Origin: a virus | Lineage: Duplodnaviria; Caudoviricetes | DNA length: 56,904 bases | IMG/VR virus record: IMGVR_UViG_3300024355_000518 | Location: 1 to 56,904 of that record | Direction: 5' to 3' (one strand) | Shown here: positions 3,926 through 56,904 of the stretch, one piece after another | Layout of the letters: every line of letters begins with the position of its first letter | How positions within the stretch are numbered: the first letter of the stretch is position 1 | Position numbers and translations under genes: made by a program | The notes under the pieces: model-generated | Seen by the model: only the letters and a program-made list of their open reading frames with translations | Databases searched by the model: none | What the model was told of the DNA's origin: nothing

Positions 3926-4054
3926 TTATTTTCCCCCGTGATTAGTTCTATTATTTAGTTCTTCGAGATATTCATTTTCAGAGATGAGCCCTTGTTCAAG
4001 GAAAACTTCCAGCTCGACTAGGTTATACATGGATAAATCTATTTTGATTTTCAT
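3926..4054 (-). CDS. Small hypothetical protein (42 aa, MKIKIDLSMYN...), not in the ORF track
   Basis: Translated by hand. ATGA overlap with the upstream stop; GGGAG RBS. Confidence 0.6.
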   Translation of the reverse strand: MKIKIDLSMYNLVELEVFLEQGLISENEYLEELNNRTNHGGK

Positions 4055-4218
4055 ACATTCTCCCTTTTAAATATGGTGATATTTGTTAAGTCAGTCTCTT
4101 TTACCCACCGGCATTCATATTCTGTTATAATCAAATACGCCAGCTTTTGTTTGGCTGCCGAATAATAAGAATCCATGATAAACACTGATTCATCGTTATA
4201 TATGGCATGGCCTAGCAT
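4051..4218 (-). CDS. First gene of the early arm, hypothetical (55 aa, MLGHAIYNDES...), not in the ORF track
   Basis: Translated by hand. GGAGG RBS; lies just downstream of the promoter at 4272-4298. Confidence 0.65.
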   Translation of the reverse strand: MLGHAIYNDESVFIMDSYYSAAKQKLAYLIITEYECRWVKETDLTNITIFKRENV

Positions 4219-4271
4219 ATGTCCTCCGTATCAGATATTTTTTATTTAGTGCATCACTGTGTACATAAATC

Positions 4272-4298
4272 TTTTCGGTATGCCATTAAAAAGCTTTA
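4272..4298 (-). promoter_or_regulatory. sigma-28-type promoter at the head of the minus-strand arm
   Basis: TAAAGCTT-N11-ACCGAAAA, canonical FliA spacing, about 54 nt upstream of the first ATG. Confidence 0.65.
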
Positions 4299-4583
4299 GT
4301 ACAATCTTTTAACCCGGTAAAATGATAGGGATAATAGCCCATCGAATATTAATTGTTACTATAATGTGCTAAAGTGAACCATGCTTTCTCTCCTGTGGAT
4401 ATGATGAGCTGATAAAGAGGGGTATGATGTATGGTGAGGTTATCCTTATTCCCCCTCTCTATAAAAAGGGAAACAGTGTCAGGGAGCTTGATTAGAAGGG
4501 GTACAAGTGCCGCCGCCCACCCCCCGGTACCAGTAATTTACCTCGCTACAAACTGGTTTACACACGGGGGAACCTTTCCATAC

Positions 4584-4612
4584 TTGACCCATATCCCCGA
4601 CTATGCTACCCT
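4584..4612 (+). promoter_or_regulatory. sigma-70-type promoter for the HNH gene
   Basis: TTGACC-N17-TACCCT with an extended -10 TG. Confidence 0.55.
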
Positions 4613-4629
4613 ATACTTGGAGGTACTAT

Positions 4630-5253
4630 ATGGTCATGAAGAGACGTAACCACACAGGTCATAAATATCACCACCTTATGTTACTTTACCCTACCAAAAG
4701 TGGCGGTACCGGTAAAGGCGTCTATTGGATGGCTAAATGCGACTGTGGTGAGATTAAAGAGGTGAGGGGGAGTGAGGCGGCTGCCGGCAAGATTAAGACT
4801 TGTGGAAAGTGCGAATATCATTACGGTCTCTTACGGGAGGGTGGGGAGCAGGGAGGAAAGGTACGGGGGTGGACAAAATCCATCCGCGTCCAGCATACCA
4901 GATATATTAGGTCGGCTGTCAAACGGGGTATCGAGTGGCGGCTAAGTCCTGAAGAATTCTTGCAATTAATAAAGAAGAACTGTACTTACTGTAACGCTTC
5001 CCCTCGCATATACAATAGTAAGCCCAATTTCGGCCGCGGTAAGACGGTAAAGACGTTAATGAACGGAATTGATAGGAAAGATTCCTCATTGGGTTATATT
5101 TCCGGTAACGTGGTACCTTGTTGTAGTGTATGCAATAAGATGAAGATGTCGATGGCAGAAAGTGATTTCCGGATACAAATACTAAAGATAGCAAAGTGTT
5201 ATTTAGAGAAAGCTGGATACGAATCAGATATCAGTGATGGTGATGAAAAATAG
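4630..5253 (+). CDS. HNH-type (Cys-rich) homing endonuclease
   Basis: N-terminal W..KCDCG...TCGKC zinc module and C-terminal CTYC...NGIDRKDSSLGYISGNVVPCCSVCNKMK. GGAGG RBS favours the start at 4630. Confidence 0.8.
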   Translation: MVMKRRNHTGHKYHHLMLLYPTKSGGTGKGVYWMAKCDCGEIKEVRGSEAAAGKIKTCGKCEYHYGLLREGGEQGGKVRGWTKSIRVQHTRYIRSAVKRGIEWRLSPEEFLQLIKKNCTYCNASPRIYNSKPNFGRGKTVKTLMNGIDRKDSSLGYISGNVVPCCSVCNKMKMSMAESDFRIQILKIAKCYLEKAGYESDISDGDEK

Positions 5254-5282
5254 TTGACACGTCATTTATTGTGTGATACAGT
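5254..5282 (+). promoter_or_regulatory. sigma-70-type promoter driving the 5289-5720 non-coding element and TerS
   Basis: TTGACA-N17-TACAGT with an extended -10 TG. Confidence 0.8.
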
Positions 5283-5288
5283 CATATT

Positions 5289-5720
5289 GTAGGGACGAGA
5301 ATATCGTCTCGAACGGGTTATTTGGAATCCGAGCTACCGAGGTTAGAATCACTGTTGAGTCAGTATCAAACTGAGAGTACCAACCTTGCAGGCAGGAATC
5401 GGGCCGATAATTCGGGACAGTTACTTAGAGCGAACTAGGAACTGGTCGGGTGTGGTTAGTGATTCTTTCACCGCCCTCCTCCGATTCAGGGGGCCCCACC
5501 GGGGTTCAAATCAGCAGAGCGGCATCCAGTCCTAATTAGCAACATGTAACAAGTAGCCACCTAGTCGCGAAAGCGGCCTTGGTAGGCCACACCCCTAAGA
5601 AGCAACTCATCCAGTAGGTTACTGATGAGGTGTAAAAGGTACCGATACGTCCCGTTTATCAGGGGCTAATAGTTACGGTACAAAGTAGTACCTACCTGTA
5701 CAAGTAGTACAGGTAGGACA
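5289..5720 (+). ncRNA. Putative large structured ncRNA (about 430 nt), family unassigned
   Basis: No ORF of 60 aa or more in about 495 nt of a gene-dense genome. Own promoter. Perfect long-range complementarities (5345-5353/5458-5466, 5396-5402/5481-5487, 5448-5455/5587-5594), a CGC-GAAA-GCG tetraloop and an 11-bp terminal hairpin at 5691-5717. Confidence 0.6.
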
Positions 5721-5749
5721 AGGACAACTATGTTTACGGTAAGAACGAT

Positions 5750-6277
5750 ATGAGTTTAAAAGACATCAGCAAATTACTAGAGGCGGCCCAAACTGACCTC
5801 ATCTTCACCCCGACTCCCGACATGCGGAGGGTAAAAGCTGCCTTCTGGACCAAGGTATCAGACAAAGTAACGCTAGTAGATACCTCCAACATTACCTTAA
5901 CGGCCGCCCAACAGGTAGAGAAAGACCGCCGACTAACCAAATGGTGGTCCCTACCCGGATTCCAAGAATGGTTTCAAAACAGGGAAGAGTTTAGGGAAAG
6001 GTTGGAGTACTTGGCCGATATTGCCCTCGATACTTTGGAGCAGGTATTAGTGGACCCCGCTGCTAACACCAGTGCAAAAGTCTCTTGCGCCAAGTTAGTG
6101 TTAGAGGCAGCTAGTAAAATGCCTCGCAAAGAGAACGAAAGTAGCCCTTCCAAGTTGGAAACCATGTCCCGTATCGAGCTCGAAGATTACGTCCGACGTA
6201 ATTTAAAGTACTTATCCCCCACAGAACCCTTGACAGAAGGCGAACCTTCTGCTACAGTAGAAAAAGCTAATACTTAG
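5750..6277 (+). CDS. Probable terminase small subunit
   Basis: 175 aa, helical. ..TLEQVL..ANTSAKVSCAKLVLE and ETMSRIELEDYVR resemble TerS C-termini; upstream of TerL. Confidence 0.55.
   Translation: MSLKDISKLLEAAQTDLIFTPTPDMRRVKAAFWTKVSDKVTLVDTSNITLTAAQQVEKDRRLTKWWSLPGFQEWFQNREEFRERLEYLADIALDTLEQVLVDPAANTSAKVSCAKLVLEAASKMPRKENESSPSKLETMSRIELEDYVRRNLKYLSPTEPLTEGEPSATVEKANT
6230..6258 (+). promoter_or_regulatory. sigma-70-type promoter for the 6297-9244 structural cluster
   Basis: TTGACA-N17-TACAGT with an extended TG, inside the 3' end of TerS. Confidence 0.75.
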
Positions 6278-6296
6278 GCAGGGAAAGGGAACTTGC

Positions 6297-6923
6297 TTGA
6301 TTCTGAAGACGGGATTACAAGAAATGGTAGTGAAGGCCAGCCGGACTTCGGCAGGGGTTATCACTCAAGACTTGTCGATTCAATCCGATGCCGCCCTCTT
6401 CTTCTTATGGATTAATTCAACTGAGGGAAACCTTACGGTAGAAGTATTTGCCCTCACCGGTGATGGTAAACAGGTTTCCCTTCTCACCTTCCCCACTACC
6501 AATCAACCTACCACTCAACTAATACAAAAGAGAACCGGTACCACGTCTACCCGCCTCCGAGTAGTGATAACTCACACCGCGGCTTGTGACTTGGAACTAT
6601 CGGCAAGAGCGGTATCTACCGGTAGCTCTGATACCCGCATACTAGGGGGTGCCACCCTTAAGGTTAGTCAACATACCGTCAATAGCGTTGTTTCCTTATT
6701 GGTACCCGCTTCCCTAGTAGACAGGGCAGCTATCGCCATCAAGAACTGGTCTACCTCCGGTACCATATACATTGCTGAAACGCAAGCAAAAGCCAATCAG
6801 GGACAAGGGTGGCCTATCGGACCAAAGGACGCCCTCGGTCTGGATATCCAAGCCGGTGTCGAGCTTTATGCTAGGGCAGTTGACGGTCCGTGCGACATTA
6901 GAATAATCGAAAGTGGGGGCTAA
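6297..6923 (+). CDS. Beta-rich virion structural protein (putative)
   Basis: 208 aa, Thr/Ser/Val-rich, in the late operon. Confidence 0.6.
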   Translation: MILKTGLQEMVVKASRTSAGVITQDLSIQSDAALFFLWINSTEGNLTVEVFALTGDGKQVSLLTFPTTNQPTTQLIQKRTGTTSTRLRVVITHTAACDLELSARAVSTGSSDTRILGGATLKVSQHTVNSVVSLLVPASLVDRAAIAIKNWSTSGTIYIAETQAKANQGQGWPIGPKDALGLDIQAGVELYARAVDGPCDIRIIESGG

Positions 6924-6925
6924 TC

Positions 6926-7312
6926 ATGGCAGCCGTTACCCCTTCCGGCTCATCCGGTAGTATAGTCGAAATCACAAATACAGCGGTAGCTCCCGCGTAC
7001 AACATTGTGGTAACCTCACTTCGAGTCAACCCCGGTACTAGGATATCATACACCTTTCCCGACGGCTCCACTTACCTCACTTTCCGCGTCAGACAATTGG
7101 GTGAAAAGGTACGCTTCTTTTCCGCCCTTAATGCAACTGGCTACTATACCACTGACACCTACTCTTCTGGTAGTGTTAATACTAAGCAAGTAACCTTTTG
7201 TTGGGAAAATGACAATGGCGTCGATGTCGAGCTCACCTATTGGGGTCCTGCCGGTATCGTAGAAAGTAGTGGATTTTTGCTACTTGAAACGGGAGACTAC
7301 CTTGAGCTATAA
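6926..7312 (+). CDS. Putative structural protein
   Basis: C-terminal LLLETGDYLEL is a motif typical of phage fibre-associated proteins. Confidence 0.55.
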   Translation: MAAVTPSGSSGSIVEITNTAVAPAYNIVVTSLRVNPGTRISYTFPDGSTYLTFRVRQLGEKVRFFSALNATGYYTTDTYSSGSVNTKQVTFCWENDNGVDVELTYWGPAGIVESSGFLLLETGDYLEL

Positions 7313-7732: not shown

Positions 7733-9244
7733 ATGTCACAGATTAAAAAGAAGTTTATCAAGAACGATGCCATTGACGGAACCAAGGTATTGTTCTTAAA
7801 CAACGAATCGTTCCGAATCAAGAACAGCTCCGGCTCTGACGTCAACCTCTTCAAACTTGACGGCAGCGACATGTTCCAAATGTTGGTGATGCCGAAAGTT
7901 AGCTCCGACCCCAGCAATAGCAACGACCTCTCCCGCAAGAGTTATGTTGATGCCGGTGACTCCGCTGTTGAGTCAGCAGCTAACGCTTACACCGACCAAA
8001 AGATTGCTGACCTCGTTGATGGTGCCCCTGCCCTCCTCAACACATTGAATGAACTTGCCGCTGCTATCAATGACGATGCCAACTTCGCTTCTACTGTCCT
8101 CGGCCAAATCTCTTCTGAAGAGACCGCTCGGATGGCGGCAGACGCCCTTATCCAATCCGAACTCGACGCTACTCAAGTCGGTGCCGGCCTCGGTTCTGAT
8201 GGAAGCTACACTTCACACTCCTCCTCCAACTACATTAAATCATCTGACTTCTCTTCCGCTAGCGTTACCGCCTCCCTCCACAATGCTGACAAACTTTTGG
8301 ATGCCGCCCTCAAAGCTGAAGTTGATGCCCGTATCGCCGATGTCGACGCTGAACAATCTGCTCGTGAAGCGGCTATCTCCGCTGAGCAATCCGCTAGAGA
8401 ATCAGCTGACGACGCTCTCGATGCTAGACTTGATACCATTGAAGGCATCGGTGAAGGCTCCATTGCTAAAGCACTGCAAGATGCCAAAGACTACGCTGAT
8501 GTTATCGATACAGACCTCCAAGGACAAATCGATACAGAGAAAAGCCGAATCGACGCCATCCTCCTCGCATCGGATGCCGACAAAGATTCCTTCGCTGAAA
8601 TCGTCTCCCTCATCAACAGCGTTGATACCACAAACGATACAGCTTTCGCTAGCTACGTTTTGAGCAATGACGCTGCCCTCGCTCAAGAAGTGTCGGACCG
8701 CCAAAGTGGCGACTCCGGACTCCAGTCCGAATTAGATGCTACCCAAAGTGGAGCAGGACTTAACTCTGATGGTAGCTACGCTGGCCACGCTACCTCCAAC
8801 TACCTGAAGACGACTGACTTCACCGCTGCTTCCCTTACCCAGTCCCTTAATAGCGCAAACAAACTCCTTGACTCGGCTATCAAAGCAGAAGTCGACGCTA
8901 GGATTGCAGCGGTATCGGCTGAGCAGTCTGCTCGCGAAACGGCTGATGAAGAACTTTCTGACCGCATTTACGCTCTTGAGACGTTTGTCCCCGCTGCCCC
9001 CACCAAAGAGAAATTCACCCTGACCAGCACTGACATCTCCAACGGCTACATCAACCTCGGTGAAGTTGTTACTCCAAACAGCGAAATGATTTTCGTAGGT
9101 TCCCTTTACATGCACCCCACTGACAGTTACACCCTGTCCACCGTTGACGGCGTTACCCGAGTTACTTGGGCTAATGAAGTCGCGGCTGGCGGAGCTACTG
9201 AGCTGGTTGAAGGTGACGTTGTTTACGTCCGTTATTACGCTTAA
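7733..9244 (+). CDS. Long coiled-coil fibre protein with an internal ~75-aa duplication
   Basis: LVDGAPALLNTLNELAAAINDDANFA fibre motif, E..AR heptad-like repeats and a duplicated QSELDATQ.GAGL.SDGSY...AEQSARE block. Confidence 0.75.
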   Translation: MSQIKKKFIKNDAIDGTKVLFLNNESFRIKNSSGSDVNLFKLDGSDMFQMLVMPKVSSDPSNSNDLSRKSYVDAGDSAVESAANAYTDQKIADLVDGAPALLNTLNELAAAINDDANFASTVLGQISSEETARMAADALIQSELDATQVGAGLGSDGSYTSHSSSNYIKSSDFSSASVTASLHNADKLLDAALKAEVDARIADVDAEQSAREAAISAEQSARESADDALDARLDTIEGIGEGSIAKALQDAKDYADVIDTDLQGQIDTEKSRIDAILLASDADKDSFAEIVSLINSVDTTNDTAFASYVLSNDAALAQEVSDRQSGDSGLQSELDATQSGAGLNSDGSYAGHATSNYLKTTDFTAASLTQSLNSANKLLDSAIKAEVDARIAAVSAEQSARETADEELSDRIYALETFVPAAPTKEKFTLTSTDISNGYINLGEVVTPNSEMIFVGSLYMHPTDSYTLSTVDGVTRVTWANEVAAGGATELVEGDVVYVRYYA

Positions 9245-9769: not shown

Positions 9770-11227
9770 ATGACGAAAAAACCGGACAAATTACTCCTCG
9801 CCGCGATGGAGAAGCTAGAAAAGCTCCGTCGACAGGAGTGTTTTGACCCGGCCAATCCAGATAGTAAACCGACCCCTGCCCAGCAAGAAGTTATCGACGA
9901 TATAAATAGTCACAAGATTCAAATAATAAGGGCTGGTAACCAGTCTGGGAAATCAGCGGTAGCTGCTAGAATCACCTCTTGGTTCCTTACTGAAACTCAT
10001 CCCAAGTGGAAGAGACCAGAACAGTGGGGACAGGAGCCCCTGCTTGCCTTGGTATGTGGTAGGACTGGAAAGCAAATCGAGGAATCTCTCTTACCTAAAA
10101 TACGGTCCTACCTCGAGCCGGGTACCTACAAAGAAGTGCGAATCGGTAACATTATACAACGCTTGGAACTGGATAATGGTAACCGTATAGTTTTCCAGTC
10201 GTTAGAGAATCCCAACATGGCCCGCGAACGGATTCAATCCTACGTAGCCCATTTGGTATGGCTAGACGAGTTACCGCCTACCGTCGACATCTTGAACGAA
10301 CTTCTCATCCGGATACAGGCACGAGATGGACACTTTATTGCGTCCTTTACTCCCTTAGTCCGCAATGTCCAAGTACAAAAATTTGTAGACGGGTTAGGCG
10401 ACTCGGTAGCGAAAACGTACCGCTTCAAGATGTTAGATAATCCCCTATACAAAGACCCCCAACGACAAGGGGAAATCTTAGCTTCCCTTGCCCATTTACC
10501 AGAGCACGTTAGAAACTCCCGTCTCTTCGGCGAGTGGATGAGCGATGATAACGCCGTATTCTACTTCGATTACAATAACATGGTTCAGTTACCCATCAAT
10601 TACTCACCTCTATGGCGACATGTGGAATCGGTGGACCCTGCAGTAAAGTCTGCCCTCGGATACACCCTTTGGGCAGAGGACCCTTTAACGGGTACCTGGT
10701 ATTGCATCCGGGCTGAATACATTAAAGGAGTCTACGTACCGACTGAATTAGTTAATGCGGTGACCAAACTCAGCCAAAATGTCAACATCGTTCGGAGGAT
10801 ATCGGACCCCCACGAGGCATGGTATATCCATACCGCTGCCAGTATGGGAATCAGCTATACCGGCGTTTACAAAAAGAATGATAGGAAAGGGGAACTGATA
10901 AAAAACTTCCAAGAAGAGTTGGGGAAGTCCCTCAAAATATCCCCCACTGCCGACCTCCTTATTGACGAAATAACATCCGCTAGGTGGAGTGATAGTCGAG
11001 AAGGGAAGATAGCATCAGGCAGCGATTACCATCTCTTGGATGCCAGCCAATATTTTCAAGATGTGAAACCAAAAAGGGAAGCCGCACCTCAAACTAATAC
11101 CAACTGGCAGTCGTGGCTCTATAACGAAAACGAAAAAAGAAAAATGAGTATAGAAAAAGCTAAGATAGAACTTCACCGAAAAGCGGTTCAACGAAGGGGA
11201 GGTACTCGTGCACGACGATTCCAATAA
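9770..11227 (+). CDS. terL: Terminase large subunit
   Basis: Q motif (PAQQE), Walker A AGNQSGKS, Walker B VWLDE, SFTP, and nuclease domain VDPA...DYHLLDA. Confidence 0.92.
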   Translation: MTKKPDKLLLAAMEKLEKLRRQECFDPANPDSKPTPAQQEVIDDINSHKIQIIRAGNQSGKSAVAARITSWFLTETHPKWKRPEQWGQEPLLALVCGRTGKQIEESLLPKIRSYLEPGTYKEVRIGNIIQRLELDNGNRIVFQSLENPNMARERIQSYVAHLVWLDELPPTVDILNELLIRIQARDGHFIASFTPLVRNVQVQKFVDGLGDSVAKTYRFKMLDNPLYKDPQRQGEILASLAHLPEHVRNSRLFGEWMSDDNAVFYFDYNNMVQLPINYSPLWRHVESVDPAVKSALGYTLWAEDPLTGTWYCIRAEYIKGVYVPTELVNAVTKLSQNVNIVRRISDPHEAWYIHTAASMGISYTGVYKKNDRKGELIKNFQEELGKSLKISPTADLLIDEITSARWSDSREGKIASGSDYHLLDASQYFQDVKPKREAAPQTNTNWQSWLYNENEKRKMSIEKAKIELHRKAVQRRGGTRARRFQ

Positions 11228-11489: not shown

Positions 11490-13526
11490 ATGGCAGTAAA
11501 AGTCTCATCTTGGAACGATGACCTCGCTTCAATCAACATAATGAAACGATTTAGAGATTCTCAAGCTCAGAGGCAGCCATTTGAACAGCGTTGGCTGAAA
11601 AATGAGCAAGCAATATACGCCACCAGTACCTTGGCTAGCATGAACTTTATGACAACCTCTTTAGAGGCTAGTTATAATACTGCGATGCCTGGTATCGACC
11701 AATCTGGTGCTGATGTTAATGTAGCGTATACTTTTAAAAATCTACGCTTCCTTCACGCCCAAATGTCGGCCAACCCTCCATCGGTAGTCATGCGTCCTAC
11801 TTCCTCTGACCAAGATGACCATAGGCGGGCCGATGCCGCTGACCGCGTTGTTAGGTGGGCCATCCGTCACTACGATATGCAAGAGAAAGTGGACCAACTT
11901 TCCCTTCACGCCCTGTTATACGGAACGGGAATCTTGAAAACGGTATGGGATTCTACTAAAGGTGATATCGTCGATTGGGACGAGAAAGAGGGAACGGTAA
12001 AGCTAGAAGGGGATATCGACATCTCAGTTCCCTTTACGTGGAATGTGTTTATCGACCCCGATGCCAGGACGTGGAAAGAAGTAAAATGGATTATTGAACG
12101 GATATATATTGATTATGATGAAGCGATAGCCAAGTGGCCCGACAAAGAGGAGATATTGAAAGCTAGTAAAGTAACTCGTGATAGCAGTATCCAACATGCC
12201 GCAACTAGACAAAGCAACCTGTCTCACGACAGATTTAACTCGGTAGAACTTCTACAATATTGGGAAACGGGGTTACCAACAAATGGCTATCTTGGTAGGT
12301 TTTGTGTCATTAGTTCTGGTGGCGGCGTGGTGGAAAGTTGCCGTCCTTCTCCTTTTAAATTTCGCCATCCGGGAGCGGCTCGCAAGGTTCAAGAAAGTGG
12401 ATACCCCGATGAAGTCGTCGAAGAAAAATTAAAGAAGACACCTGAGCAGGCTATCCTGCCCTATCATATATTGACCGATATCGATGTTCCCAACGTGGTA
12501 TGGGGACGTTCCCCAGTAGAATATGCGGCTACTTTGCAAGATAGCTTGGCCAGATTAGATACCGCTGTAATGGACAATATCCAAGCCCATGGAGCGGCTA
12601 GGATGATTCTACCCGATACTGCTGAAGCGCAAGTCAATATCAGTAACTCCCCGTGGGACGTTATGAAAATTAGCGGTAACCAACCCCCATACTTTATGGA
12701 AGTGCCCCAACTAATGCCAGAAATGGTATCTACTAGGATGAACCTGATTCAAGGTATCAATGACGTCATGGGTGTCAATGATGCCATGTTCGGGGTGCAG
12801 AAGAGGGAGACTTCAGGCACTAGCATGAACTATGCCACCAATCAAGGTAACATGATTCGAAGGCGTATCTTCAACAAGTACGTCCTTGTAGTAGAGAGTA
12901 TTTACAAGGCTATCCTCAAATTAATATGCAAGCATTGGCCTGTCAATCGTACCATATACGTGTTAGGTAAAGAGAATGCATTAGAAGCGGTTGACCTAAA
13001 AGGTAGTGATATTGATGGTGGCTATGATATAGTAGGGGAGTACGGGGTATCTCTCTCCCTCGACCCGATGTCAAGGAGGGAAGAAATCTTAACGTTACAG
13101 CCCCTTTTTGAGAAGGCTGGCGTCCCCACGCGAACTTCGTTAAAGCTGCTCAAGTTGAATGAATTGGAAGGAATGTACGACAGATTGGCCCTCGCCGAGA
13201 ACAGACAAAAAGAAGTATTCGATGAGATGATTGCCACCGGTCGCTATATTCCACCCGAAGACTTGATGGACCACGAGAATATGATATCATGGGCGTTGGA
13301 ATACTTCATGACGCAAGAGTTTCAATCACTGGAGCAGCAACTCAAAGAGTTGTGCAAACAACACATTAGAGACAGGGTACAAGTAGCGGCGCAAGAAAAG
13401 GCAGCCTTAACCGGTCCCCCGCCAGGAGCTACCCCGGGTCCCGCTCCGGCCCCCGGACCGGAAGCATTACCACCTGAAGGAGAATTAGGGCAACCACCAA
13501 TGGTACCCCCAATGATAAACCAGTAG
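11490..13526 (+). CDS. Portal protein (P22-like/podovirus type)
   Basis: 678 aa after TerL. LLYGTGILKTVWD, VFIDPDAR, WGRSPVE and a Pro-rich C-terminal tail. Confidence 0.85.
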   Translation: MAVKVSSWNDDLASINIMKRFRDSQAQRQPFEQRWLKNEQAIYATSTLASMNFMTTSLEASYNTAMPGIDQSGADVNVAYTFKNLRFLHAQMSANPPSVVMRPTSSDQDDHRRADAADRVVRWAIRHYDMQEKVDQLSLHALLYGTGILKTVWDSTKGDIVDWDEKEGTVKLEGDIDISVPFTWNVFIDPDARTWKEVKWIIERIYIDYDEAIAKWPDKEEILKASKVTRDSSIQHAATRQSNLSHDRFNSVELLQYWETGLPTNGYLGRFCVISSGGGVVESCRPSPFKFRHPGAARKVQESGYPDEVVEEKLKKTPEQAILPYHILTDIDVPNVVWGRSPVEYAATLQDSLARLDTAVMDNIQAHGAARMILPDTAEAQVNISNSPWDVMKISGNQPPYFMEVPQLMPEMVSTRMNLIQGINDVMGVNDAMFGVQKRETSGTSMNYATNQGNMIRRRIFNKYVLVVESIYKAILKLICKHWPVNRTIYVLGKENALEAVDLKGSDIDGGYDIVGEYGVSLSLDPMSRREEILTLQPLFEKAGVPTRTSLKLLKLNELEGMYDRLALAENRQKEVFDEMIATGRYIPPEDLMDHENMISWALEYFMTQEFQSLEQQLKELCKQHIRDRVQVAAQEKAALTGPPPGATPGPAPAPGPEALPPEGELGQPPMVPPMINQ

Positions 13527-27200: not shown

Positions 27201-29290
27201 CTTTTTACAAGGTATCAACAAAGACGATGCCGTATGTCGGGTTAGATGGCTATATCGATTTTGTTGATTCCTACAACAATGATACCTTGACTGACGATAC
27301 CAGTGATGCCATAGCAGGGGTACTTTCCCCATCGGTAACTCCTGCTGGGTGGGATGAGCCGATGCGAGCCAAGTATGTGACGTCAGCGGGGAATAGGTTA
27401 GTGCTGGCGAATATTAAGGATTGGCCAACCCTTTCCGTTTCTTATCTTACTGCAACTTCTTTAATTAATACCGACTTCAACGGACAAAAGTTCCTCTTCA
27501 GAAAAGATAGCAGCGATACCGCTACCGATACTAATATGGTCGATAGGGTAACGTACGAGCTACGTTCTAGTGGTAGTGCTACTGTAGGGACGATTACGGC
27601 AGGAAGTCCCACCGGATTTACCTTTACTTGCAACTTTAGTGCGAGGACGCCCGTTGTCGGAGATTGGGTGTATCTTTACTTTACAAACTCCTTTTCTCAC
27701 CCCTTGACATGCTCCGGCTGGTGGCAAGTAGCTTCTGTTAGTGGTTCCTCAGGTGCTTATACTATAGGAATAAATACAGCAACTTCTGTTGTGGTACCTA
27801 TCATAGCATCTCACCCCATGCAAGTACTATTCTCAACAGCGGCTTACGATGTCCCAGTCAATATTGCAACTGACCAAAATATGGGAATGTTCAATGGTAA
27901 TTCATTATTAACACTAGCCCCCTCTACTACGATATTGAGACGGATTGGGATGGCGATAAACTCCACTATGAGGATGGTAGACCTTTCCGTTCACAATCAA
28001 TCTGCTTTCATTCCCTGGCTAGTAGCCCGTTCTGAATCGGATACTTTGGGTAACTTGATAGTGAAGCAACCTCGGGTAGAAGATACCTTACCCAGCGTCA
28101 CGATATCGGGCGGATTAACAAGTAACACATACGTTAATGGTAGTAAAGTAACGGCGTCTACTCCGATTAACGCTGCTATTACCGCCTACCCAAGTCGGCT
28201 ATTGGTAAGTTACAACAACTACCCAGAGATATTTGATTCCCCCTTTGTAACAGATGACAATGATTCCGTTTCTACTATTGATATCAACTCGTCTGACGGG
28301 CAAGAGATTACTGGCATCATTCCCTTCTTCGGGGAATCCGCTTTCGGTGCCGCCTTGCAAGGGGGCGTCATCGTCGTCTTCAAACAGAATAGTATATACT
28401 TGGTCAACTTGGACTATAAGAGGGAAGGTAGAAATCCTGTAGAAAGATTAGAGACGCAAGGCATCGGGTGTACTGCCCCATACAGTATAGCTTCGACTCG
28501 AGACGGGATAGCCTTCGCTAACGATTCCGGCATATACGTCTTACGGAGAACGCAACGGGTGGAATATTTGGGTAAGTATATGGAGAGGAAATGGCAGAAA
28601 GAAGTGGATACCTCTTACCTCGATATTATGCAAGGACATCACTACAATGTGGGAAGGCAGTACAAGCTATCGGTACCGATGATAGAAAATAGTACATCCT
28701 CTTACGCCGAGAATGGTGAAGTATATGTTTACAACCATACAAATGAAACAAATACTGAGCTCGGCGGATGGGCCAGGTATACCAACCATCCCGCTACCGG
28801 GTGGACTAACCTTTTCGACGATGCCTTCTACGCGAGCGTAAATGGGTCTATTTTGCGCGTAAACAATCAGGGGCTACCTCAAGACTATCGGGACGGTTCA
28901 GACGCGATAGAGATGGTTTTTCAAGGCCGGGCTAATGACTTCGGTCAGGCTGGCATCCGAAAGATAGTAAGTCATGTGATAGTGAATTACCGAAGTGGCG
29001 GTGTCAGCGATAATACTACGGTAGAAACGGCTCCCGATTTAATGAGACAATACGATACCACTACCCCGTTTACCGTAGTCAACATTCCCCCCGATAACGG
29101 GTTTAGTTCCTTGGCTGGACAAGATGTGACGGCAATCCGGCATAGTATATACAATAGACGGTGCATCTATATCACAGTAAAGATTATCAATAATGGATTG
29201 AATGAAGATATGGAAGTGGCGGGGATGTCATTTGTGGTAGCAGGACTAAACTCGAAAGGTATCAAGCAAGCTGCTGTTACTAAAGAGTAA
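24254..29290 (+). CDS. Large tail protein (tail tubular B / nozzle-like with inserted beta domains)
   Basis: 1678 aa. N-terminal DLVNADI.EGRIRKRKG and C-terminal propeller-like region (GQEITGI..VVFKQNSIY..GIGCTAPYSI..FANDSGIY), as in podovirus nozzle proteins. Confidence 0.7.
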   Translation: MPYQYTVVDEKAFPYGIDARSAENQIREGFIRDLVNADIIEGRIRKRKGFFSYAGNVPVRVTSLRYENPNKIYFTLDSSIDLSRVSSTPLIAYGRSNLSATTNPFPSSGGLRYYPSWETSLRKVFLANTTGSISSLQVEHNISTTNMFVGLALSTGSGTNLSGELISATDIVINNSTYDVTVDYTNGTNSAKNVFLYYLDQSPVAGSVYVQPGSLSSGNNTFTIPAATHNLSNYLITPQVYVRPTGGNWVQTTPDLFEIDTSNGGVEVQLNNINTAVYNEYKIILSIVGSTQAVNVSLNVGTNTITIPDIQSPFLFPALYTRSGNILSLVQPDVISFDDDTKLLSISYTNNSGALSGAFYYTYGNIRTNEISVTESGSPNLTTGTDTSPQLTLWGLDHADIYGSGKQVNRRGWVNHIDSYRSPSTTHLVAGLGGNFFAALGRGEMPSLLQPSIPTYYARLQGRLSSLTDIGPAFCDNSTPVARTRGYASFSSGGTNWATITKIQHQSGQTVRYYLSMPGLAITGGSTLADIISTTSGLEDYLTVKNMSHSKHNGTFKVVNVSTLVGDNQYIDVINSAITTSDYDDDGTRGLGGIFTDHLTFTSTNEFVEGDLLLSSSWGNETELVIKSTSALTSVVQNVYSYRELSSGLLITGQRTSDVIPLRTAANSPSTEYVVKGDILLTPAVPYPVQIVSIDTVNNKVTVDSPLSFYDDAANSIPFTIFKRWIPREMPLKDNGDNLINDKIPFYFTNDGYDNQSFLRSAMVQNNMYLTNGRDEVYKYDGNSIYRAGIIPWQPGLFSTVEATTAGIALAPAVANDGGGGAVIDLLGSRIKIDKTQAAFFSDGDTVLITDGTLSPVARYYVTIASRELEDTGNHYLFSFKEPLPFTTLGSGATVTMSKVYQARYYFRLNIRDENGVTISSAVTGAGDFYNRISPTDTAPNQQKVHIRLVGLPAWDNYDYNNKNIELEIYRTKWASSEISVPTFYKVSTKTMPYVGLDGYIDFVDSYNNDTLTDDTSDAIAGVLSPSVTPAGWDEPMRAKYVTSAGNRLVLANIKDWPTLSVSYLTATSLINTDFNGQKFLFRKDSSDTATDTNMVDRVTYELRSSGSATVGTITAGSPTGFTFTCNFSARTPVVGDWVYLYFTNSFSHPLTCSGWWQVASVSGSSGAYTIGINTATSVVVPIIASHPMQVLFSTAAYDVPVNIATDQNMGMFNGNSLLTLAPSTTILRRIGMAINSTMRMVDLSVHNQSAFIPWLVARSESDTLGNLIVKQPRVEDTLPSVTISGGLTSNTYVNGSKVTASTPINAAITAYPSRLLVSYNNYPEIFDSPFVTDDNDSVSTIDINSSDGQEITGIIPFFGESAFGAALQGGVIVVFKQNSIYLVNLDYKREGRNPVERLETQGIGCTAPYSIASTRDGIAFANDSGIYVLRRTQRVEYLGKYMERKWQKEVDTSYLDIMQGHHYNVGRQYKLSVPMIENSTSSYAENGEVYVYNHTNETNTELGGWARYTNHPATGWTNLFDDAFYASVNGSILRVNNQGLPQDYRDGSDAIEMVFQGRANDFGQAGIRKIVSHVIVNYRSGGVSDNTTVETAPDLMRQYDTTTPFTVVNIPPDNGFSSLAGQDVTAIRHSIYNRRCIYITVKIINNGLNEDMEVAGMSFVVAGLNSKGIKQAAVTKE

Positions 29291-29302
29291 TCCCGATTTA
29301 TG

Positions 29303-29330
29303 TTGACAGAATTCGGAAGGGCGATATAAT
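29303..29330 (+). promoter_or_regulatory. Near-consensus sigma-70 promoter reading into the non-coding GTAC array
   Basis: TTGACA-N16-TATAAT. Confidence 0.7.
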
Positions 29331-29380
29331 CAACTCATGGATTGTTTCTCTTCCGCTTCAAATATGTGCCACCGTAACAT

Positions 29381-29575
29381 ATAGTATATAGTACATATGT
29401 ACAGCTGTACTATAGTACATAGTAGTACCGTACCGAGTAGTATACTACTACGTAGTACTGTACATAGTAGTACAGTACAAAGGAGTACTGTACAAAGTAG
29501 TACTAGCCGAACTATGTCGTACCGGACTACGCTGTAACGGGGCTATGTCGTACCGGACTACGCTGTACCGGACTA
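29381..29575. repeat. GTAC-rich array with GTAC-N6-GTAC boxes and a 25-bp direct repeat
   Basis: 16 GTAC counted by hand in 29391-29568. CTATGTCGTACCGGACTACGCTGTA occurs at 29512-29536 and 29543-29567. Confidence 0.9.
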
Positions 29576-29611
29576 ACTAGTATCGGGGCCCCCCAGCGCT
29601 CCCGAAACTAC

Positions 29612-29640
29612 TTGACACTATTGTCCAAACGTGGTACAGT
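29612..29640 (+). promoter_or_regulatory. sigma-70-type promoter for the internal virion protein operon
   Basis: TTGACA-N17-TACAGT with an extended TG. Confidence 0.8.
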
Positions 29641-29664
29641 GATAAGAGACAAGAGGGGTAGTCC

Positions 29665-31947
29665 ATGGCAAAGTCTGTAACTTTATTTGACAAATTGAAT
29701 CAGAACCAGAACTCGACTCAGTCTGTGCAACAGCTATCCGCTAACCGCGGCTTGGCCGCTCCCCCCATTACCGCTTACGGTACCGGTCTCATTGGTGGTA
29801 CCCAAGACCAGGCAAAGATGGCTGGTACCCCTGCCCAAAGAGGGTCGGTGATAGCTGCCGCTACCAAAGTAGTTGCCCCTGGTGGGGAGACCGAACAAGA
29901 AAAAGAAGCTGTCCTAGCCGAGGCTAAGGAGACAGCGGAAGATGTTGCCAAAAAACAACTCGCCTCCAAGTACATGGAGTCATTAGGTACTTACGGTGCT
30001 AAAGTCAATGAGTGGATTGAATCATCTAAGAAGAGGATGACTGAGCAAACTGCCGGTGTGATAGTAGATGTTTCAGACCAAATTCTAGCCGGGTTAGACA
30101 CTGCCCAAAAAGATATTGCAATCTCTCTCATCAAGAAAATCGCCACCGAACCAGATGCCCAAAAGAGACTCGACCTCGAATTGGAACTAAACGTCGTCCT
30201 CAAGAGGGATATCAACTCAATCCTCAATGCTGAGCAAAAGGGCCAGTTGTATGACTCGATTGCCAAGAGTATTGCAGAAGCTACTACTGCCGGCGAAAAA
30301 GCCATCACTGGAGAAGATAGCAAACTGACAGCTGGTGACTTGGCTCAGCTTGGGACTACTATAGAAGATTTGTCCTCCCTCCTTAATGTACCAGTTGCTG
30401 ACTTGACCAATATGACGTTGGGCCAGTTGCAAGATAAGATTGAACAAGTTACTCAGCAACAACTTGGTACCACGGCTACTATTCAAGGTGCGATGGAAGG
30501 TGCCTTTAGTCCGACAGAGAGGGCAGCGTTGCGCCGCTATTTGCGCGATGTGCAAGCGGTCGGAGTAACTGGTGCCGAAGCGGGAGTTGCCAACATCGTT
30601 GACCAAGTGGACAAGCAGAATTCAGTAACATTTGCTGGCAAGAAATATACTATAGATGAACTTTTTGGTTCCCCTGCCTTGACTAAAGTATTTCAAGATG
30701 CCATCACTGAGATAGAAGGTACTACGAAAACAGGTCCCACTTTAGAGGCGCTAAAGAGGGATGAACCTGCGCTATATCAATGGCTCATGGATAATTACAA
30801 CGGTGTCAAATCTCTCATCGAAAAGAGTACTACCACCTCCACAGAATTTGGTACTATTCAAACAGCCAATAAAGAAGCGTTGGGCGAGATTGGGAAGTCG
30901 CAGCCAGAGCTGGCCAAAAGTTTAGGCTTTGACCCTAATCAGCTCCGTTCGACTAGAATTGACCCCAATCAACTCCCACCCGCATTCCAATTCATTAATA
31001 ACGCTCCGGCAGAACATAGAGCAACACTAGCCGCAAATTTACGTTCCCTTTCTGATGTAGCGGGTATCGACATGATAAAGGGACTTGATGCCGGACAACT
31101 CAAACAATTAGACCTTACCAATCCCTCCGGTCCATGGGCCCAGTATAGTAATGCGGTCAAAGATGTCAATCGGATGGCCAATCTGACAACTATTGACGAC
31201 ATCATCAAAGAGATATCTAGCGGAGATGAGTCATTAGACCAGTTGGATAGCGAGCTTACCGGCGATTCTTTAGCTATCGCTTTAGGTGTCCCAACCAGTA
31301 ATGTTAGAGAACTGGATGTTAGCGGTGATGGTGTTATCGACGACAAAGACGTTTCCTTACTAAAAGAAAAATACAAAGGTTCGGTACCTCCGTTAGCTGA
31401 TTTCTTGAAAGGGGCCAAGCCTCAATCGGCAACTAACACCTTTACCCTCTCCCGTCCCAAATCCAATAATCCAGTACTAGACAACGTTTTCGCTACTATT
31501 AGTCCTCTCCTCCGAGACAAGAATGTTGATGAAGGGGAAAGGAACACTATCCGAAACTTGGCTTCCCCAATGAGTGAAGATGAATTGACCTCTTTAGTAA
31601 ACAAGGATTGGAGCAAGGTACCGGGGGGAAGCGTCATTAGGGAAACGATGCAAGCCACATTGCAGGGCAAGATACAGGAAAGGTTGGCTAAAGAGGAAGA
31701 GGAACGGAGACGGAGAGAAGGAGAGGAAGAAGAGCGGAAAAGAGGGGAAACACCAAAGTTTGTAGAGAAGGGCCAAGCCGTACTCAAGAAACTTCCGGTA
31801 GTTCTCGATACTATATCTGAGAAGTGGGAAGCCGGTACCCAGCCTATTGCCGGGATAGCGCAAGCGGCAGAAACTGGGGCAGGATTAGTAGGTAAAGTAA
31901 TAAAATCCGCTCCAGGTAAAATCAAGAAAGGTAAGATAAAAATATAA
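29665..31947 (+). CDS. Internal virion (ejection) protein
   Basis: 760 aa, helical and A/Q/E-rich, follows the tail genes as in podoviruses. Confidence 0.6.
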   Translation: MAKSVTLFDKLNQNQNSTQSVQQLSANRGLAAPPITAYGTGLIGGTQDQAKMAGTPAQRGSVIAAATKVVAPGGETEQEKEAVLAEAKETAEDVAKKQLASKYMESLGTYGAKVNEWIESSKKRMTEQTAGVIVDVSDQILAGLDTAQKDIAISLIKKIATEPDAQKRLDLELELNVVLKRDINSILNAEQKGQLYDSIAKSIAEATTAGEKAITGEDSKLTAGDLAQLGTTIEDLSSLLNVPVADLTNMTLGQLQDKIEQVTQQQLGTTATIQGAMEGAFSPTERAALRRYLRDVQAVGVTGAEAGVANIVDQVDKQNSVTFAGKKYTIDELFGSPALTKVFQDAITEIEGTTKTGPTLEALKRDEPALYQWLMDNYNGVKSLIEKSTTTSTEFGTIQTANKEALGEIGKSQPELAKSLGFDPNQLRSTRIDPNQLPPAFQFINNAPAEHRATLAANLRSLSDVAGIDMIKGLDAGQLKQLDLTNPSGPWAQYSNAVKDVNRMANLTTIDDIIKEISSGDESLDQLDSELTGDSLAIALGVPTSNVRELDVSGDGVIDDKDVSLLKEKYKGSVPPLADFLKGAKPQSATNTFTLSRPKSNNPVLDNVFATISPLLRDKNVDEGERNTIRNLASPMSEDELTSLVNKDWSKVPGGSVIRETMQATLQGKIQERLAKEEEERRRREGEEEERKRGETPKFVEKGQAVLKKLPVVLDTISEKWEAGTQPIAGIAQAAETGAGLVGKVIKSAPGKIKKGKIKI

Positions 31948-47764: not shown

Positions 47765-50700
47765 TCACTCTTCCAGCTTGATACCAGCCAAAGTTTTCGC
47801 TACTGCTGCACTCCCCTTCAGGGGACAGGTGCCACCCAGAAGGGAGTTTAACTCCCGATAGGCATCGACTTCCATTATCTTCTTAGCAGCTTCCACCTGC
47901 TCATCAGGTACCTCAATGATGGATTCATCATGCCAATCCATTACTATGGGGGTCCAACTTAGCTTTGCCTCAGTCAAGAGATGAGCAGTAATCCTCGAAT
48001 ACAATTGAAGAATATCGTGACCAGTACTTTGAACTACACGATTGAGGATATCTTTCAAGTATTTATCGTCTATACAGATAGGTCGACCATACCCATTCTC
48101 TACCCAGCCACCGTTAGCTTTCCACTCATCTTGTAACCACGTGATGTAAGACATCACTCCACTCTTTGCTTCCATCAATGAGTTATGCATCTCCTCCACT
48201 TCGCGGAGGGACATCTCGACACCGTTCAAAGAGAGTATCTTCTGTTTCTTTTTCACTCCCGAGCCGTAGTTATCTGATAGGATGAGCAGCTTCGCTATCG
48301 ACCGTTCCTTTTTGAATGCCTTCTTGGTAGCCTCTATCGCCTCCGCTGTAGGGGCGTAGGGGTCGTATCCCAATGAGGTTAGCTTTGGACCGATGCCGGC
48401 CATCATACTACCGTAAAAGAGATAGATATCATTCTTCTTAGCGGATGGTCCATATAAAGCTAGTAGATTATTGTCTTGTGATAGCTCCGCTGTCACCACC
48501 ATCTCCAGTGCATTCACGTCACAATCGACAAAGGAATGTCCCGGTCGCGAGATGAATCCTGAAAGGGTACCCCTCGTCTTCGGACATTGAGATGTCACGT
48601 AAGTACTTGTACCGCGGCGCACTAGTAGGTGTTCCGTTTCCACGCTAAGGCAGTAGACCATTCCGTCGTAAACTTGAGTAGTTACATTGGATTTTTTATA
48701 TTCGCGATGCGAGCCTTTTCGGATGTACAAGGAGTAGGCTAGTGGTCTCTTGAACTTGCGGACCCCATACCCGTGACGAACAAGTAGTGCCTGGATAGCG
48801 TCAACAACGTCTTCATGAATACAGTAAAATTCAAAGGCATCTTTAGCTGTTCCAACCTTATGCCCGTCCCAAAAGGATAGCGCTTCCACAAAAGTTTCTA
48901 CTTGATTATCCCCGAGAACAGATAAATCAAACTTCTTGTCCGCCGTCAATAGGGGATGTTGAAACTCGACACGGTACCAAGAATGGACGCCGTTAGCGCT
49001 GACATGATTGGCTGGCACTCCAACTAACTCCGTAAATTTTTGTATCTTTCGGTCTCTCTTAAAACCAAAACGCCACACATAAGGATTCTTTACCCGCGCA
49101 CTGGAGCCATCCGCTTGGACAGCGGCTGCCATCCATATGTCTCGCTCGCTAAAGAACGATTCCGTTGTAGTGCTGGGACGGATGCTGGCATGTGCCATGC
49201 ACTCCTTGGTTCTGAGTTTGTGGATGTCAGATGCCGTTGCAGTAACTCGTCTGACTCGCTCGGTTTCAGCAGCGTGGTTTAAGTCACCGATTAATAACAG
49301 CCTATGGTCTGGAGTTACAAGTAGCGGGGTGTTGTTAGCCATCCCGATAGCGACCATGTCACCCGAGTAGTGCCTTTGCGTTGTGGCTTGAACAGGTCCC
49401 CACTGACCAAACAAGGTATCAGGTTGAATGGTCCACACCAATTCACCGATTTGTAAATCCTTGATTAGTTTCCATCCAGACGGAGTTAATGCTTCGGTAT
49501 CGGGGGCAAAGCATTGTTGTAGGTTGGGACTCTTGCCAGCCAGTCTTCCCGTCACGGTACCTGGCATCTTGAAGGAGGGGTGGATAGTGGGTCGATGTTC
49601 GACTCGCTCGATATAGTCCGCCACGTAGCTGAGCTCCTTCACTTTCAGCGCCCTCCCGATAAGGATTTGACCAACATCGCCCATCGACTGGAGGGCGTCC
49701 TCACTAACGGCAGGTAGCCCACTCTCCGTTTGCAGTGATACCTTGTTATTTAGCTTATCATAGAGGAGCCATCGAAGGTGGTCTCCGGACTGCAAGTTGA
49801 ATGAGTAGCCGGGCTCGATACCGAGCTCGATACGGTGTCTCTTCCCTTCCCAGTTTTTCCAATTCTTACTCTCCTCGAGCGGCTGTCGCTCGAGCTCGTC
49901 CCATTTTAACCAGTTCTTACTTATCGTTACCCCGTCCTTTAAGAAGCGCGGGGGTTCCTTTCTTTCCTTTTTCTTCTTATGTCGGGCCGGCTCGGTAGAG
50001 AGGAACTCGGTCACCTTTGCCGTTTCAAATTCCTTGATGTGGGGGGCGACTAGAGGATGTTCTCGAAAGGAACGTTCGCTATTGACGATGGCCGCCTCTA
50101 ACTCGGTAGCATATCCTACCCAGTGCTGGCGGTCGGTCATGATGCCAGCTATCTTCTGGTCGATGTGCACTAAGACGTGAGGGAGGAAATCACATTGATG
50201 ATATTCGTCAAGCTTTGGAAACCGGCGGAGGAGGGGAGCCAAATGTTCTGTGTAAAGGAGGTACGTAGCTTCGGCATCGAGGACGCAATACCTCCCAATG
50301 ATAGCAGGTGGCGCCCTCCACATTTCTCCTTTCATCGGTGCCTTGTTCTGTTTACAATATCCATTATCCACTAACCAGGTATCTAATTCAGTTTCATTGG
50401 TATCGCTCCACATTAAGACATCTACCATCGCTTCCTTTAGTCCCCACCGCTGCCCCTCGAATCCCTCACTCGCACATTGCATATAGAGACCAAAGGTACA
50501 AGCTAACCAATTGGCATGCTGACCGAGGTCTCTCTTTATCCACCCCCCGTCAAAGTACACATTGTGTGCTATTAATCCCTTATGTTGGGTGAGCAATTGG
50601 ATTAGTTCGGCTATCGATTCATCTGATAACTGGTCCATCGATAAGTAACAGGAGCCCTCGTCCCAAGCGAGACCGACACCGACCACATACGCCTCACTAT

Positions 50701-50899: not shown

Positions 50900-50924
50900 A
50901 CTACCTTCTCCTTTGCTGAGCAAC

Positions 50925-50954
50925 AAAAAAAGAAGGGGGAGCGCTACTTCCCCC
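50925..50954 (-). terminator. Rho-independent terminator between the SSB-like gene and polA
   Basis: Minus strand GGGGGAAG-TAGCG-CTCCCCC followed by TTCTTTTTTT. Confidence 0.7.
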
Positions 50955-50996
50955 AATACCAATCGCTGAAAGACTGGCTACTATATCTATCTTACA

Positions 50997-56457: not shown

Positions 56458-56904
56458 AAAACGACCTTCCCTGTTAATAGTTTGTAGTACAATTTTATTA
56501 CTTGATAATGTTGGTCAATTTCTTGCTCGGAAAATTGAGCTTTTTCACCTATCTCTTTATACTTTTGCAACCATATATCCCAATCGTGCTCCTCACAGCC
56601 GATGCGAAGAGTATGGGGACTAGCTACCCCATTGAATTTGCCTATAAAAAACTGATATATGGGGTACGGTGTCTTAGCACCGGACAAGTTAGCACGGGAC
56701 AAGTCAGCACCGACCAAGTTAGCACAGGACAAGTCAGCACCGAACAAGTTAGCACAGGACAAGTCAGCACCGGACAATATAGCACGGGACAAGGTAGCAC
56801 GGGACAAGTTAGCACCGACCAAGTTAGCACCGGACAAGTTAGCACGGGACAAGTCAGCACCGACCAAGTTAGCACAGGACAAGTCAGCACCGAACAAGTT
56901 AGCA
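56454..56904 (-). CDS. Pentapeptide-repeat protein 2, C-terminal part (A[DN]LxX repeats plus a C-terminal domain with LRIGCEEH..W)
   Basis: ORF track 56454..56897 has pentapeptide repeats followed by a non-repeat domain. The true start lies across the junction at 210. Confidence 0.85.
56778..56904. repeat. Second copy of the 127-bp terminal overlap
   Basis: Identical to 1-127. Confidence 0.9.

Follow-up and report, generated by a model that had tools for sequence, protein, structure and literature searches.

The gap at positions 5254-5749 (+ strand) of IMG/VR record IMGVR_UViG_3300024355_000518 (Duplodnaviria; Caudoviricetes), a complete virus record of 56,904 bp that we analysed over its full length and refer to as the window, very probably encodes a previously undescribed structured RNA of an uncultured freshwater phage lineage (we put the probability at roughly 0.9). 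Transcribed from a conserved promoter, this RNA would open with a hairpin, P0, and continue into a conserved core of about 240 nucleotides (nt; 5312-5551) that is built from two domains and one pseudoknot, as judged from two alignments (A2 and A3), pair counts and nhmmer searches. Its role is a more tentative matter: our first choice, at a probability of about 0.4, is that it acts in cis on the expression of p175, the gene that it leads into, with a predicted binding of a ligand or a protein. A first-pass annotation had described the region as a non-coding RNA of about 430 nt, of which the conserved fold makes up only these ~240 nt, followed by a poorly conserved linker, a second module and GTAC repeats. 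All features described below lie on the + strand unless stated otherwise.

Conservation and fold of the core

Using the flanking proteins and a conserved DNA motif as queries, we gathered relatives of the region from IMG/VR and from metagenome contigs. Ten of the 15 viral stretches are homologous and five are chance matches, 13 of the 16 metagenome stretches are homologous (many being duplicates) and three are not, and a protein search added two further, divergent copies; the final set, divided into three clades, comprises 16 sequences (15 distinct rows). Scanning viral contigs with a looser pattern gained only the L051 contig, which was already known, plus eight loci of one unrelated sequence, and a weak nhmmer match at the end of locus L033 (E 3.5e-4) was judged to be chance or undecidable. 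A pattern scan of one genome each of 185,579 prokaryote species returned no copy, hence no prophage and no clue to the host, and none of 50,697 deposited phages was matched by the gap in a blastn search. The core measures 240-251 nt in all relatives and nhmmer recovers it in each at E 1e-37 to 1e-73, while the gap upstream spans 1-413 nt and the distance from the core to the start of p175 is 198-306 nt. Between the window and its relatives, the core is 48-78% identical and the sequence after it 18-46%, while identity amounts to 56-67% for p175 and 44-61% for the HNH-like protein encoded upstream.

The hairpin P0 (5292-5310) is kept in the relatives while its sequence varies: the minimum free energy (MFE) structure of the 47 nt preceding the core is a hairpin ending just before the first core helix in 16 of 16 sequences, and these sequences are unrelated. 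Domain 1 is then closed by H1 (5315-5325/5403-5413), a G-U-rich long-range helix that does so in the MFE structures of all 16 sequences, with 90.9% of alignment cells paired and seven of nine pairs changing on both sides; its two strands had at first been read as separate local hairpins (5314-5331 and 5404-5415), and pair with each other instead. Within domain 1, Hx (5338-5344/5382-5388) encloses one pseudoknot strand and the hairpin H2. Two pairs of Hx show GC/CG and GU/UG swaps, yet with 70% of cells paired and a register that is shifted or ambiguous in clade B it is less secure. H2 (5360-5374; UCAGU-loop-ACUGA), which like P0 had been proposed beforehand and is kept in the relatives, is paired in 100% of cells, with two of its five pairs covarying.

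Domain 2 runs from H3 and H4 into a three-way junction with H5 and an arm formed by H7, H7b and H6. The closing long-range helix H3 (5420-5424/5546-5550 plus 5430-5431/5539-5540) is paired in 95.6% of cells and four of its six pairs change on both sides. The bulged helix H4 (5437-5445/5526-5533) reaches the same 95.6% on alignment A2, where five of seven pairs show compensatory changes, and 75.8% on A3, in which its outer part is misaligned. This helix, too, had been anticipated, with one strand (AGGAACTGG) placed at 5438; the string is present but begins at 5437. H5 (5449-5452/5469-5472), a GGUG/CACC stem, is paired in 100% of cells, shows a GC to AU swap in six rows and carries the 3' pseudoknot strand (5458-5466) in its 16-nt loop. 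The arm (5473-5523) consists of the closing helix H7 (5473-5478/5517-5523), the inner H7b (5483-5486/5509-5512) and the variable hairpin H6 (5491-5507). When folded in isolation, the arm of each of the 16 sequences forms an inner hairpin within a terminal closing helix, which reads GCCCUC/GAGCGGC, GUCGUC/GACGAC or GCUUCGCC/GGCAAGC depending on the clade. For Hx, H7 and H6 the support is that of per-sequence folding. The loop nucleotides of the core are invariant in both alignments.

The two domains are joined by a pseudoknot helix of 9-10 bp between 5345-5353 (AGAAUCACU) and 5458-5466 (AGUGAUUCU), which ties the H5 loop to an internal loop of domain 1. It is paired in 93% of cells, and six of ten pairs change on both sides; the strands read GUAUUAUCU/AGAUAAUAC in clade B and GCAUUGUCU/AGACAAUGC in L051. 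This 9-bp pairing, given in DNA letters as AGAATCACT/AGTGATTCT, is the one crossing helix to survive comparison among the three that had led the first-pass annotation to call the RNA multiply pseudoknotted. All the strings that it quoted are present in the sequence, but GAATCGG/CCGATTC is paired in clade A only, CCGATTC being engaged locally in H7b, and GGGTGTGG/CCACACCC is an exact 8-nt complement in just two of the 16 sequences. Similarly, a supposed 5'/3' closure (GGGACG/CGTCCC) gives way to local pairing of GGGACG within P0, and a T-loop-like string near 5503 falls in the variable H6 and is not conserved.

How strong is the comparative case? RNAalifold predicts 41 pairs, of which 23 show compensatory changes. 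Once the crossing helix is included, the 44 pairs considered in 14 sequences are paired in 95.4% of cells, against 32-44% in controls that slide the partner 1-3 columns, and 24 of the 44 change on both sides. Across all 16 sequences, 51 pairs are paired in 88.6% of cells, against 34-43% when slid, and 32 change on both sides, against 8-12. None of 500 shuffles reached the observed pairing values in either set, a control that overstates significance, as all 16 sequences form one lineage and shared ancestry inflates it; the slid controls and the counts of double changes are the stronger argument. In the proposed pairs, G-U cells outnumber A-C cells by 68 to 27, which indicates that the folded strand is the + strand.

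Taken by itself, the single sequence makes a weak case, and it is the comparison with relatives that rescues the core. The idea that the region should fold better than shuffled controls holds for the gap as a whole (MFE z-score -3.71 on the + strand and -2.61 on the - strand) and fails for the core alone (5307-5558), which at z = -0.20 does no better than shuffles. Perfect inverted repeats of at least 9 nt number two against 0.36 expected (20 of 300 shuffles reach two), those of at least 8 nt three against 1.37 (45 of 300 shuffles), and those of at least 7 nt four against 5.7, with no enrichment. Such weak statistics, together with GTAC-rich repeats at 5678-5717 that resemble binding sites of a DNA-binding protein and are found again in a second intergenic region, could be taken to mean that there is no RNA function at all and that conservation stems from DNA signals (such as cos/pac or operator sites) or from chance. 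We regard this as extremely improbable, since compensatory double changes in 32 of 51 pairs, against 8-12 when slid, and the excess of G-U over A-C are not expected of a double-stranded DNA signal.

Promoter and transcripts

The RNA is preceded by a sigma-70-type promoter, TTGACA-N17-TACAGT, at 5254-5282, a motif that the first-pass annotation had also noted, with 10 of 12 consensus matches and a TG ahead of the -10 hexamer. A TTGAC[AG] -35 element, a 17-18-nt spacer and a -10-like hexamer stand 24-51 nt before the core in 16 of 16 sequences, and the promoter overlaps the end of the HNH open reading frame (ORF) in six of the 15 sequences with the HNH stop on record. Four relatives carry 230-410 nt of additional non-coding DNA between the HNH stop and the RNA promoter (L015:1578-1900, L051:1632-2046, L031:1756-2030 and L017, oriented 1195-1427), and in L015 and L031 this DNA contains a second TTGACA. 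Since no terminator-like site was found in 4000-7000 and no further promoter between the RNA promoter and the ORF starting at 5750, the RNA must be the 5' leader of p175. The following gene, p208, has its own promoter-like site at 6230, which suggests that the leader serves p175 specifically.

Contigs from sequencing runs recorded as RNA libraries are consistent with such transcription. Most of the stretch is present in 19 such runs, mostly riverine, dating from 2018-2019 and possibly from one campaign; four (X14, X17, X18 and X19) were examined in detail. Contigs of the HNH gene, present in three of the four, have a depth of 3.5-4.6, and those from the leader onward a depth of 26-68 (31-68 for the downstream contigs), with the reservations that parts of the stretch cannot be ranked by contig depth, to which other strains may contribute, and that RNA libraries can contain DNA. 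The leader is contiguous with p175 in X14 (5128-5751) and X18 (5413-7000). It has a depth of 26 against 50 for the downstream contig in X14 and 35 against 67 in X17, whereas in X18 leader and p175 form one contig. Uncovered parts, such as 5301-5412 in X18 and 5574-5755 in X19, are no evidence of absence.

X19 differs from the other runs. Here the core stands as a separate 276-nt contig at a depth of 471, against 30.9 downstream; it covers 5307-5558 without a mismatch, meets an adapter-like loose end at 5307 and has both of its ends about 7 nt outside H1 and H3. One run in four is thereby a hint that the core accumulates as a discrete species. This fits a close rival to cis regulation, in which the core is cut or trimmed from the leader and persists as a stable particle of ~250 nt that acts in trans, for example as a ribonucleoprotein scaffold, as a decoy against host defence or an RNA-binding protein, or as a self-assembling multimer. 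We consider this somewhat unlikely, though nearly as likely as regulation in cis. The fold is more elaborate than that of most cis leaders and its loop nucleotides are invariant, both of which speak for a trans-acting RNA; on the other hand, the pattern is confined to one of four runs, the leader being shallower than the downstream contig in X14 and X17 and part of a single contig in X18, contig depth does not measure RNA level, and we found neither a terminator or conserved processing site nor a partner.

Gene neighbourhood

The region lies on the + arm between two ORFs, and as the first-pass annotation had observed, it is the largest ORF-free stretch there: no gap between + strand ORFs of at least 100 amino acids (aa) is larger, and the ORFs inside it measure just 33, 38 and 49 aa. 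The upstream gene (4603-5253) encodes a 216-aa HNH/endonuclease VII-like protein that PHROGs alone recognise (phrog_1035, E 1.9e-16; phrog_3118, E 1.7e-13), with no Pfam or NCBIfam match at E<=1. The downstream gene, p175 (5750-6277), encodes a 175-aa helical protein that sequence and structure searches assign to no known family. All relatives share the gene order orf72, HNH, gap, p175, p208, p128, p125 and tail-fibre-like gene, and the HNH-like gene stands 5' of the RNA in 15 of 16 loci, the sixteenth (L032) having just 287 nt of upstream sequence.

The name TerS (small terminase subunit), initially given to p175, is unproven and would have to be based on weak leads. In the ESM Atlas, p175 lies near Terminase_2 clusters at 0.90-0.91, which is a lead only; its AF2 model is poor (mean pLDDT 63), and Foldseek with this model returned nothing at E<=0.001, the rows for the PaP3, NV1 and Sf6 TerS being non-significant (E 1.5-2.8). 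There is no match to any TerS among Pfam, PHROG, NCBIfam or PDB sequences. The large terminase gene, TerL (9770-11227), is found ~3.5-4 kb beyond p175, with five ORFs between, and is followed by the portal gene (11490-13526).

These neighbours raise the question of whether the RNA is associated with packaging, or is a partner of the HNH nuclease or of a TerS-like protein, in a role that might be analogous to those of phi29 pRNA or the RNA partners of IscB. Adjacency to the HNH gene in 15 of 16 loci, the overlap of promoter and HNH ORF in six of 15 and the weak TerS-like leads of p175 point this way, as does L076, a more distant locus (p175 47% identical, upstream sequence available) that has neither the HNH gene nor the RNA and could hint at their linkage, albeit as a single case inside a syntenic block. 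Linkage to HNH, a check that the first-pass annotation had called for, is seen as adjacency but says little given that the whole neighbourhood is syntenic, and HNH relatives 31-61% identical occur in other phages (L008-L012, L014) without the RNA. Given that the phage possesses an ordinary TerL and portal at a distance of 4-6 kb, that neither the pRNA nor the HEARO model of Rfam matches, and that the HNH protein has 216 aa and family matches of HNH/endonuclease VII types only, we find a packaging or nuclease partnership quite doubtful. In L076 (900-1545), a promoter-like TTGACA site and a small ORF stand upstream of the p175 homologue, in the place that HNH and the RNA take elsewhere.

Region between the core and p175

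The core is followed by a variable linker (5552-5632) with local hairpins (CGC-GAAA-GCG and 5606-5629), in the part where identity to relatives is 18-46%. Next comes a short module 2 (5633-5666), made of a purine-rich UAAAAGG, a hairpin and CAGGGGC, whose consensus (AGAAAGGGG, hairpin, CAGGAGC) is recognisable in all three clades. No structure in common emerged from consensus folds of module 2 or of the post-core region, the latter taken clade by clade. The third part (5678-5717) consists of GTAC-rich repeats, found as an inverted self-match, that include an 11-bp hairpin (5691-5717) and have GTAC/CTAC-rich counterparts at the same place in relatives. Because GTACAAAGTAGTAC recurs exactly at 29490-29503, within a 15-nt tandem array of another promoter-bearing intergenic region, and with one mismatch at 29415, 29460 and 29475, the GTAC-rich part may be a dispersed protein-binding motif acting at the DNA level rather than an RNA fold. 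A Rho site, suggested by eye from the C-rich post-core sequence of clade C, was dropped, the post-core region of the window having 32 C and 36 G in 139 nt.

The other intergenic region (29290-29665) is also long, with promoter-like sites at 29303 and 29612 and, between them, a 31-nt direct repeat and six tandem copies of a GTAC-rich 15-nt unit (GTACAAAGTAGTACT), one of which is identical to 5678-5691. By its sequence it may contain a shared operator-like motif or another structured leader. Several other intergenic gaps of the + arm hold sites similar to the RNA promoter, and near-consensus TTGAC[AG]-N16-18-TAnnnT sites lie in or beside such gaps at 6230, 7538, 11329, 13931, 21820, 29303, 29612. 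Their distribution suggests many host-type promoters instead of a single late operon.

Some further features of the record deserve mention. Its 127-bp terminal repeat has a length typical of assembly overlap, and the record ends are therefore uninformative about the physical ends of the genome. A 15-nt unit, TAGCACCGGACAAGT, forms long arrays at 3-141, 396-1188 and 56674-56904 that span the record junction; arrays of this unit fall inside a - strand ORF (376-1272) that looks like a five-residue repeat protein and matches repeat-rich PHROGs of no known function in seven stretches. The tail-fibre-like gene (7733-9244; phrog_1197, E 7.9e-17) lies upstream of TerL, an unusual gene order. Finally, the 1065-aa DNA polymerase (47765-50962, - strand) matches a ribonucleotide-reductase PHROG at residues 586-804, and this middle segment may be an inserted element such as an intein.

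Comparison with known structured RNAs

We compared the window with the 4227 models of Rfam 15 at gathering score, and positions 5150-5850 and eight homologous loci at E<=10. No family matched the window or the relatives, including RNase P, GOLLD, ROOL, raiA, OLE, HEARO, pRNA, riboswitches and small ribozymes, and the noise rows that appeared (miRNA, IRES, sRNA) fall outside the core. ARAGORN found no tRNA or tmRNA gene in the window. The view that this is a large promoter-driven phage RNA outside the tmRNA, RNase P and group I/II intron models thus holds against these searches. We found no description of the RNA in the literature. The catalogue PMC10690425, with its more than ten thousand candidate structured RNAs of viruses and phages, may nevertheless list the motif.

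In topology the RNA recalls the group I core. Group I introns have a P3/P7 pseudoknot that encloses a self-contained P4-P6 domain; here, likewise, the pseudoknot and H4 cross, their strands following one another as 5'A-5'B-3'A-hairpin-3'B, and the P7-like helix has a bulged A. Together with the sharp contig end at 5307 and the neighbouring HNH gene, a setting known from many intron-encoded endonucleases, this resemblance would allow the RNA to be a ribozyme that processes the leader through self-cleavage or that is left over from a group I-like intron. We nonetheless consider it very unlikely. There is no match to the group I model RF00028 at gathering score in the window, and no intron or ribozyme model matched even at E<=10 across the nine sequences searched. 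The RNA is not within a gene: the flanking ORFs are complete and collinear with their relatives from residue 1, and the contigs of the four RNA-library runs show no splice joints, bearing in mind that contigs can miss rare forms. A self-contained P4-P6 domain can be set aside as well, as the strands between the crossing helices (the 3' strand of H1 and the 5' strand of H3) pair outside that interval, and position 5307 lies inside the variable P0 hairpin, outside the conserved core.

Two other groups of RNAs resemble this one in context or style. phi29 pRNA and the HEARO/IscB omega RNA are structured RNAs that partner packaging proteins or HNH nucleases, and our RNA adjoins an HNH gene, in a phage that has TerL and portal genes. 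Proteins of the IscB type combine RuvC and HNH domains in about 400-500 aa; the neighbouring protein, at 216 aa and with HNH/endonuclease VII PHROG matches only, is unlike them, and an omega RNA was rejected as a candidate. ROOL, GOLLD, raiA and OLE share with our RNA an intricate, multi-helix, pseudoknotted fold and a history of recognition by covariation before function. They differ in that the RNA described here is smaller (~240 nt), is the leader of a protein gene, has no tRNA genes beside it (none occur in the window) and matches none of their models. Multimers have reportedly been seen of late for ROOL, GOLLD, OLE and raiA, and one could imagine that the core is likewise an autonomous RNA machine, whose inter-domain helix of 9-10 bp forms multimers, or which joins the co-inherited HNH and TerS-like proteins as the RNA component of a nuclease or packaging complex; this we consider unlikely. 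Like many copies of ROOL and GOLLD (see 10.1101/2024.12.08.627333), the RNA is phage-borne.

Leader RNAs are comparable in position. As in cobalamin and lysine riboswitches and T-box leaders, a complex, sensor-like fold stands between a promoter, which it follows directly, and a gene of the same orientation, a variable stretch follows the fold, and a long-range loop pairing locks two domains together; unlike in those systems, no model matches and no terminator or helix masking a ribosome-binding site (RBS) was found here. The HK022 put antiterminator RNA and the lambda pR' 6S leader are also placed directly 3' of a promoter heading late or structural genes. However, put is a pair of stem-loops of about 70 nt, and an intrinsic terminator ends the lambda 6S leader, whereas here we see a pseudoknotted fold of 240 nt, no terminator-like site and a + arm with several more promoter-like sites. 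On the whole, we rate the RNA as a new family within a known kind of ornate phage and leader RNAs.

Discussion

Cis regulation is our first choice because cis regulators are laid out in this way, with a conserved, sensor-like fold ahead of a variable stretch, as when an aptamer is joined to a changeable platform. The conserved fold lies between the promoter and p175 on the same strand, with the promoter present in 16 of 16 sequences and the core 198-306 nt before p175. In the mechanism that we propose, host RNA polymerase would start at TTGACA-N17-TACAGT, and the transcript would open with the P0 hairpin and then fold into the ~240-nt core, in which the helix of 9-10 bp would lock domains 1 and 2 together. 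A protein or small ligand would then bind to the folded core and thereby set the level of transcription or translation into p175 and beyond, while the core, which would be resistant to nucleases, would persist as a by-product.

Several points weigh against this account. No terminator, anti-terminator or RBS-sequestering helix emerged from the terminator scan of 4000-7000 or from consensus folding of the post-core region, and p175 is without known function, hence we propose no regulatory logic. The deep X19 contig (depth 471 against 30.9 downstream) fits a stable trans-acting RNA at least as well. As for the fold itself, the core taken alone (z = -0.20) is no better than its shuffles, and all 16 sequences come from one lineage, whose shared ancestry flatters the shuffle control.

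Complex pseudoknotted RNAs of this size are rare and, once solved, have usually turned out to be ribozymes, riboswitches or the cores of RNA-protein machines. What distinguishes the RNA described here is the combination of strong comparative support, a conserved promoter and presence in many freshwater RNA-library contigs, so that biochemical work on it would have a concrete target at low cost. The RNA also marks a phage lineage without a cultured relative, the best TerL match among deposited phages being 24% identical and no cultured phage being close. If the RNA does control the first gene of the structural arm, it would give a phage a novel means of setting the timing or dose of a late function. 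Should it instead form multimers, or serve as a subunit of a packaging or nuclease complex, it would point to a new class of abundant phage RNA particle in river and lake infections.

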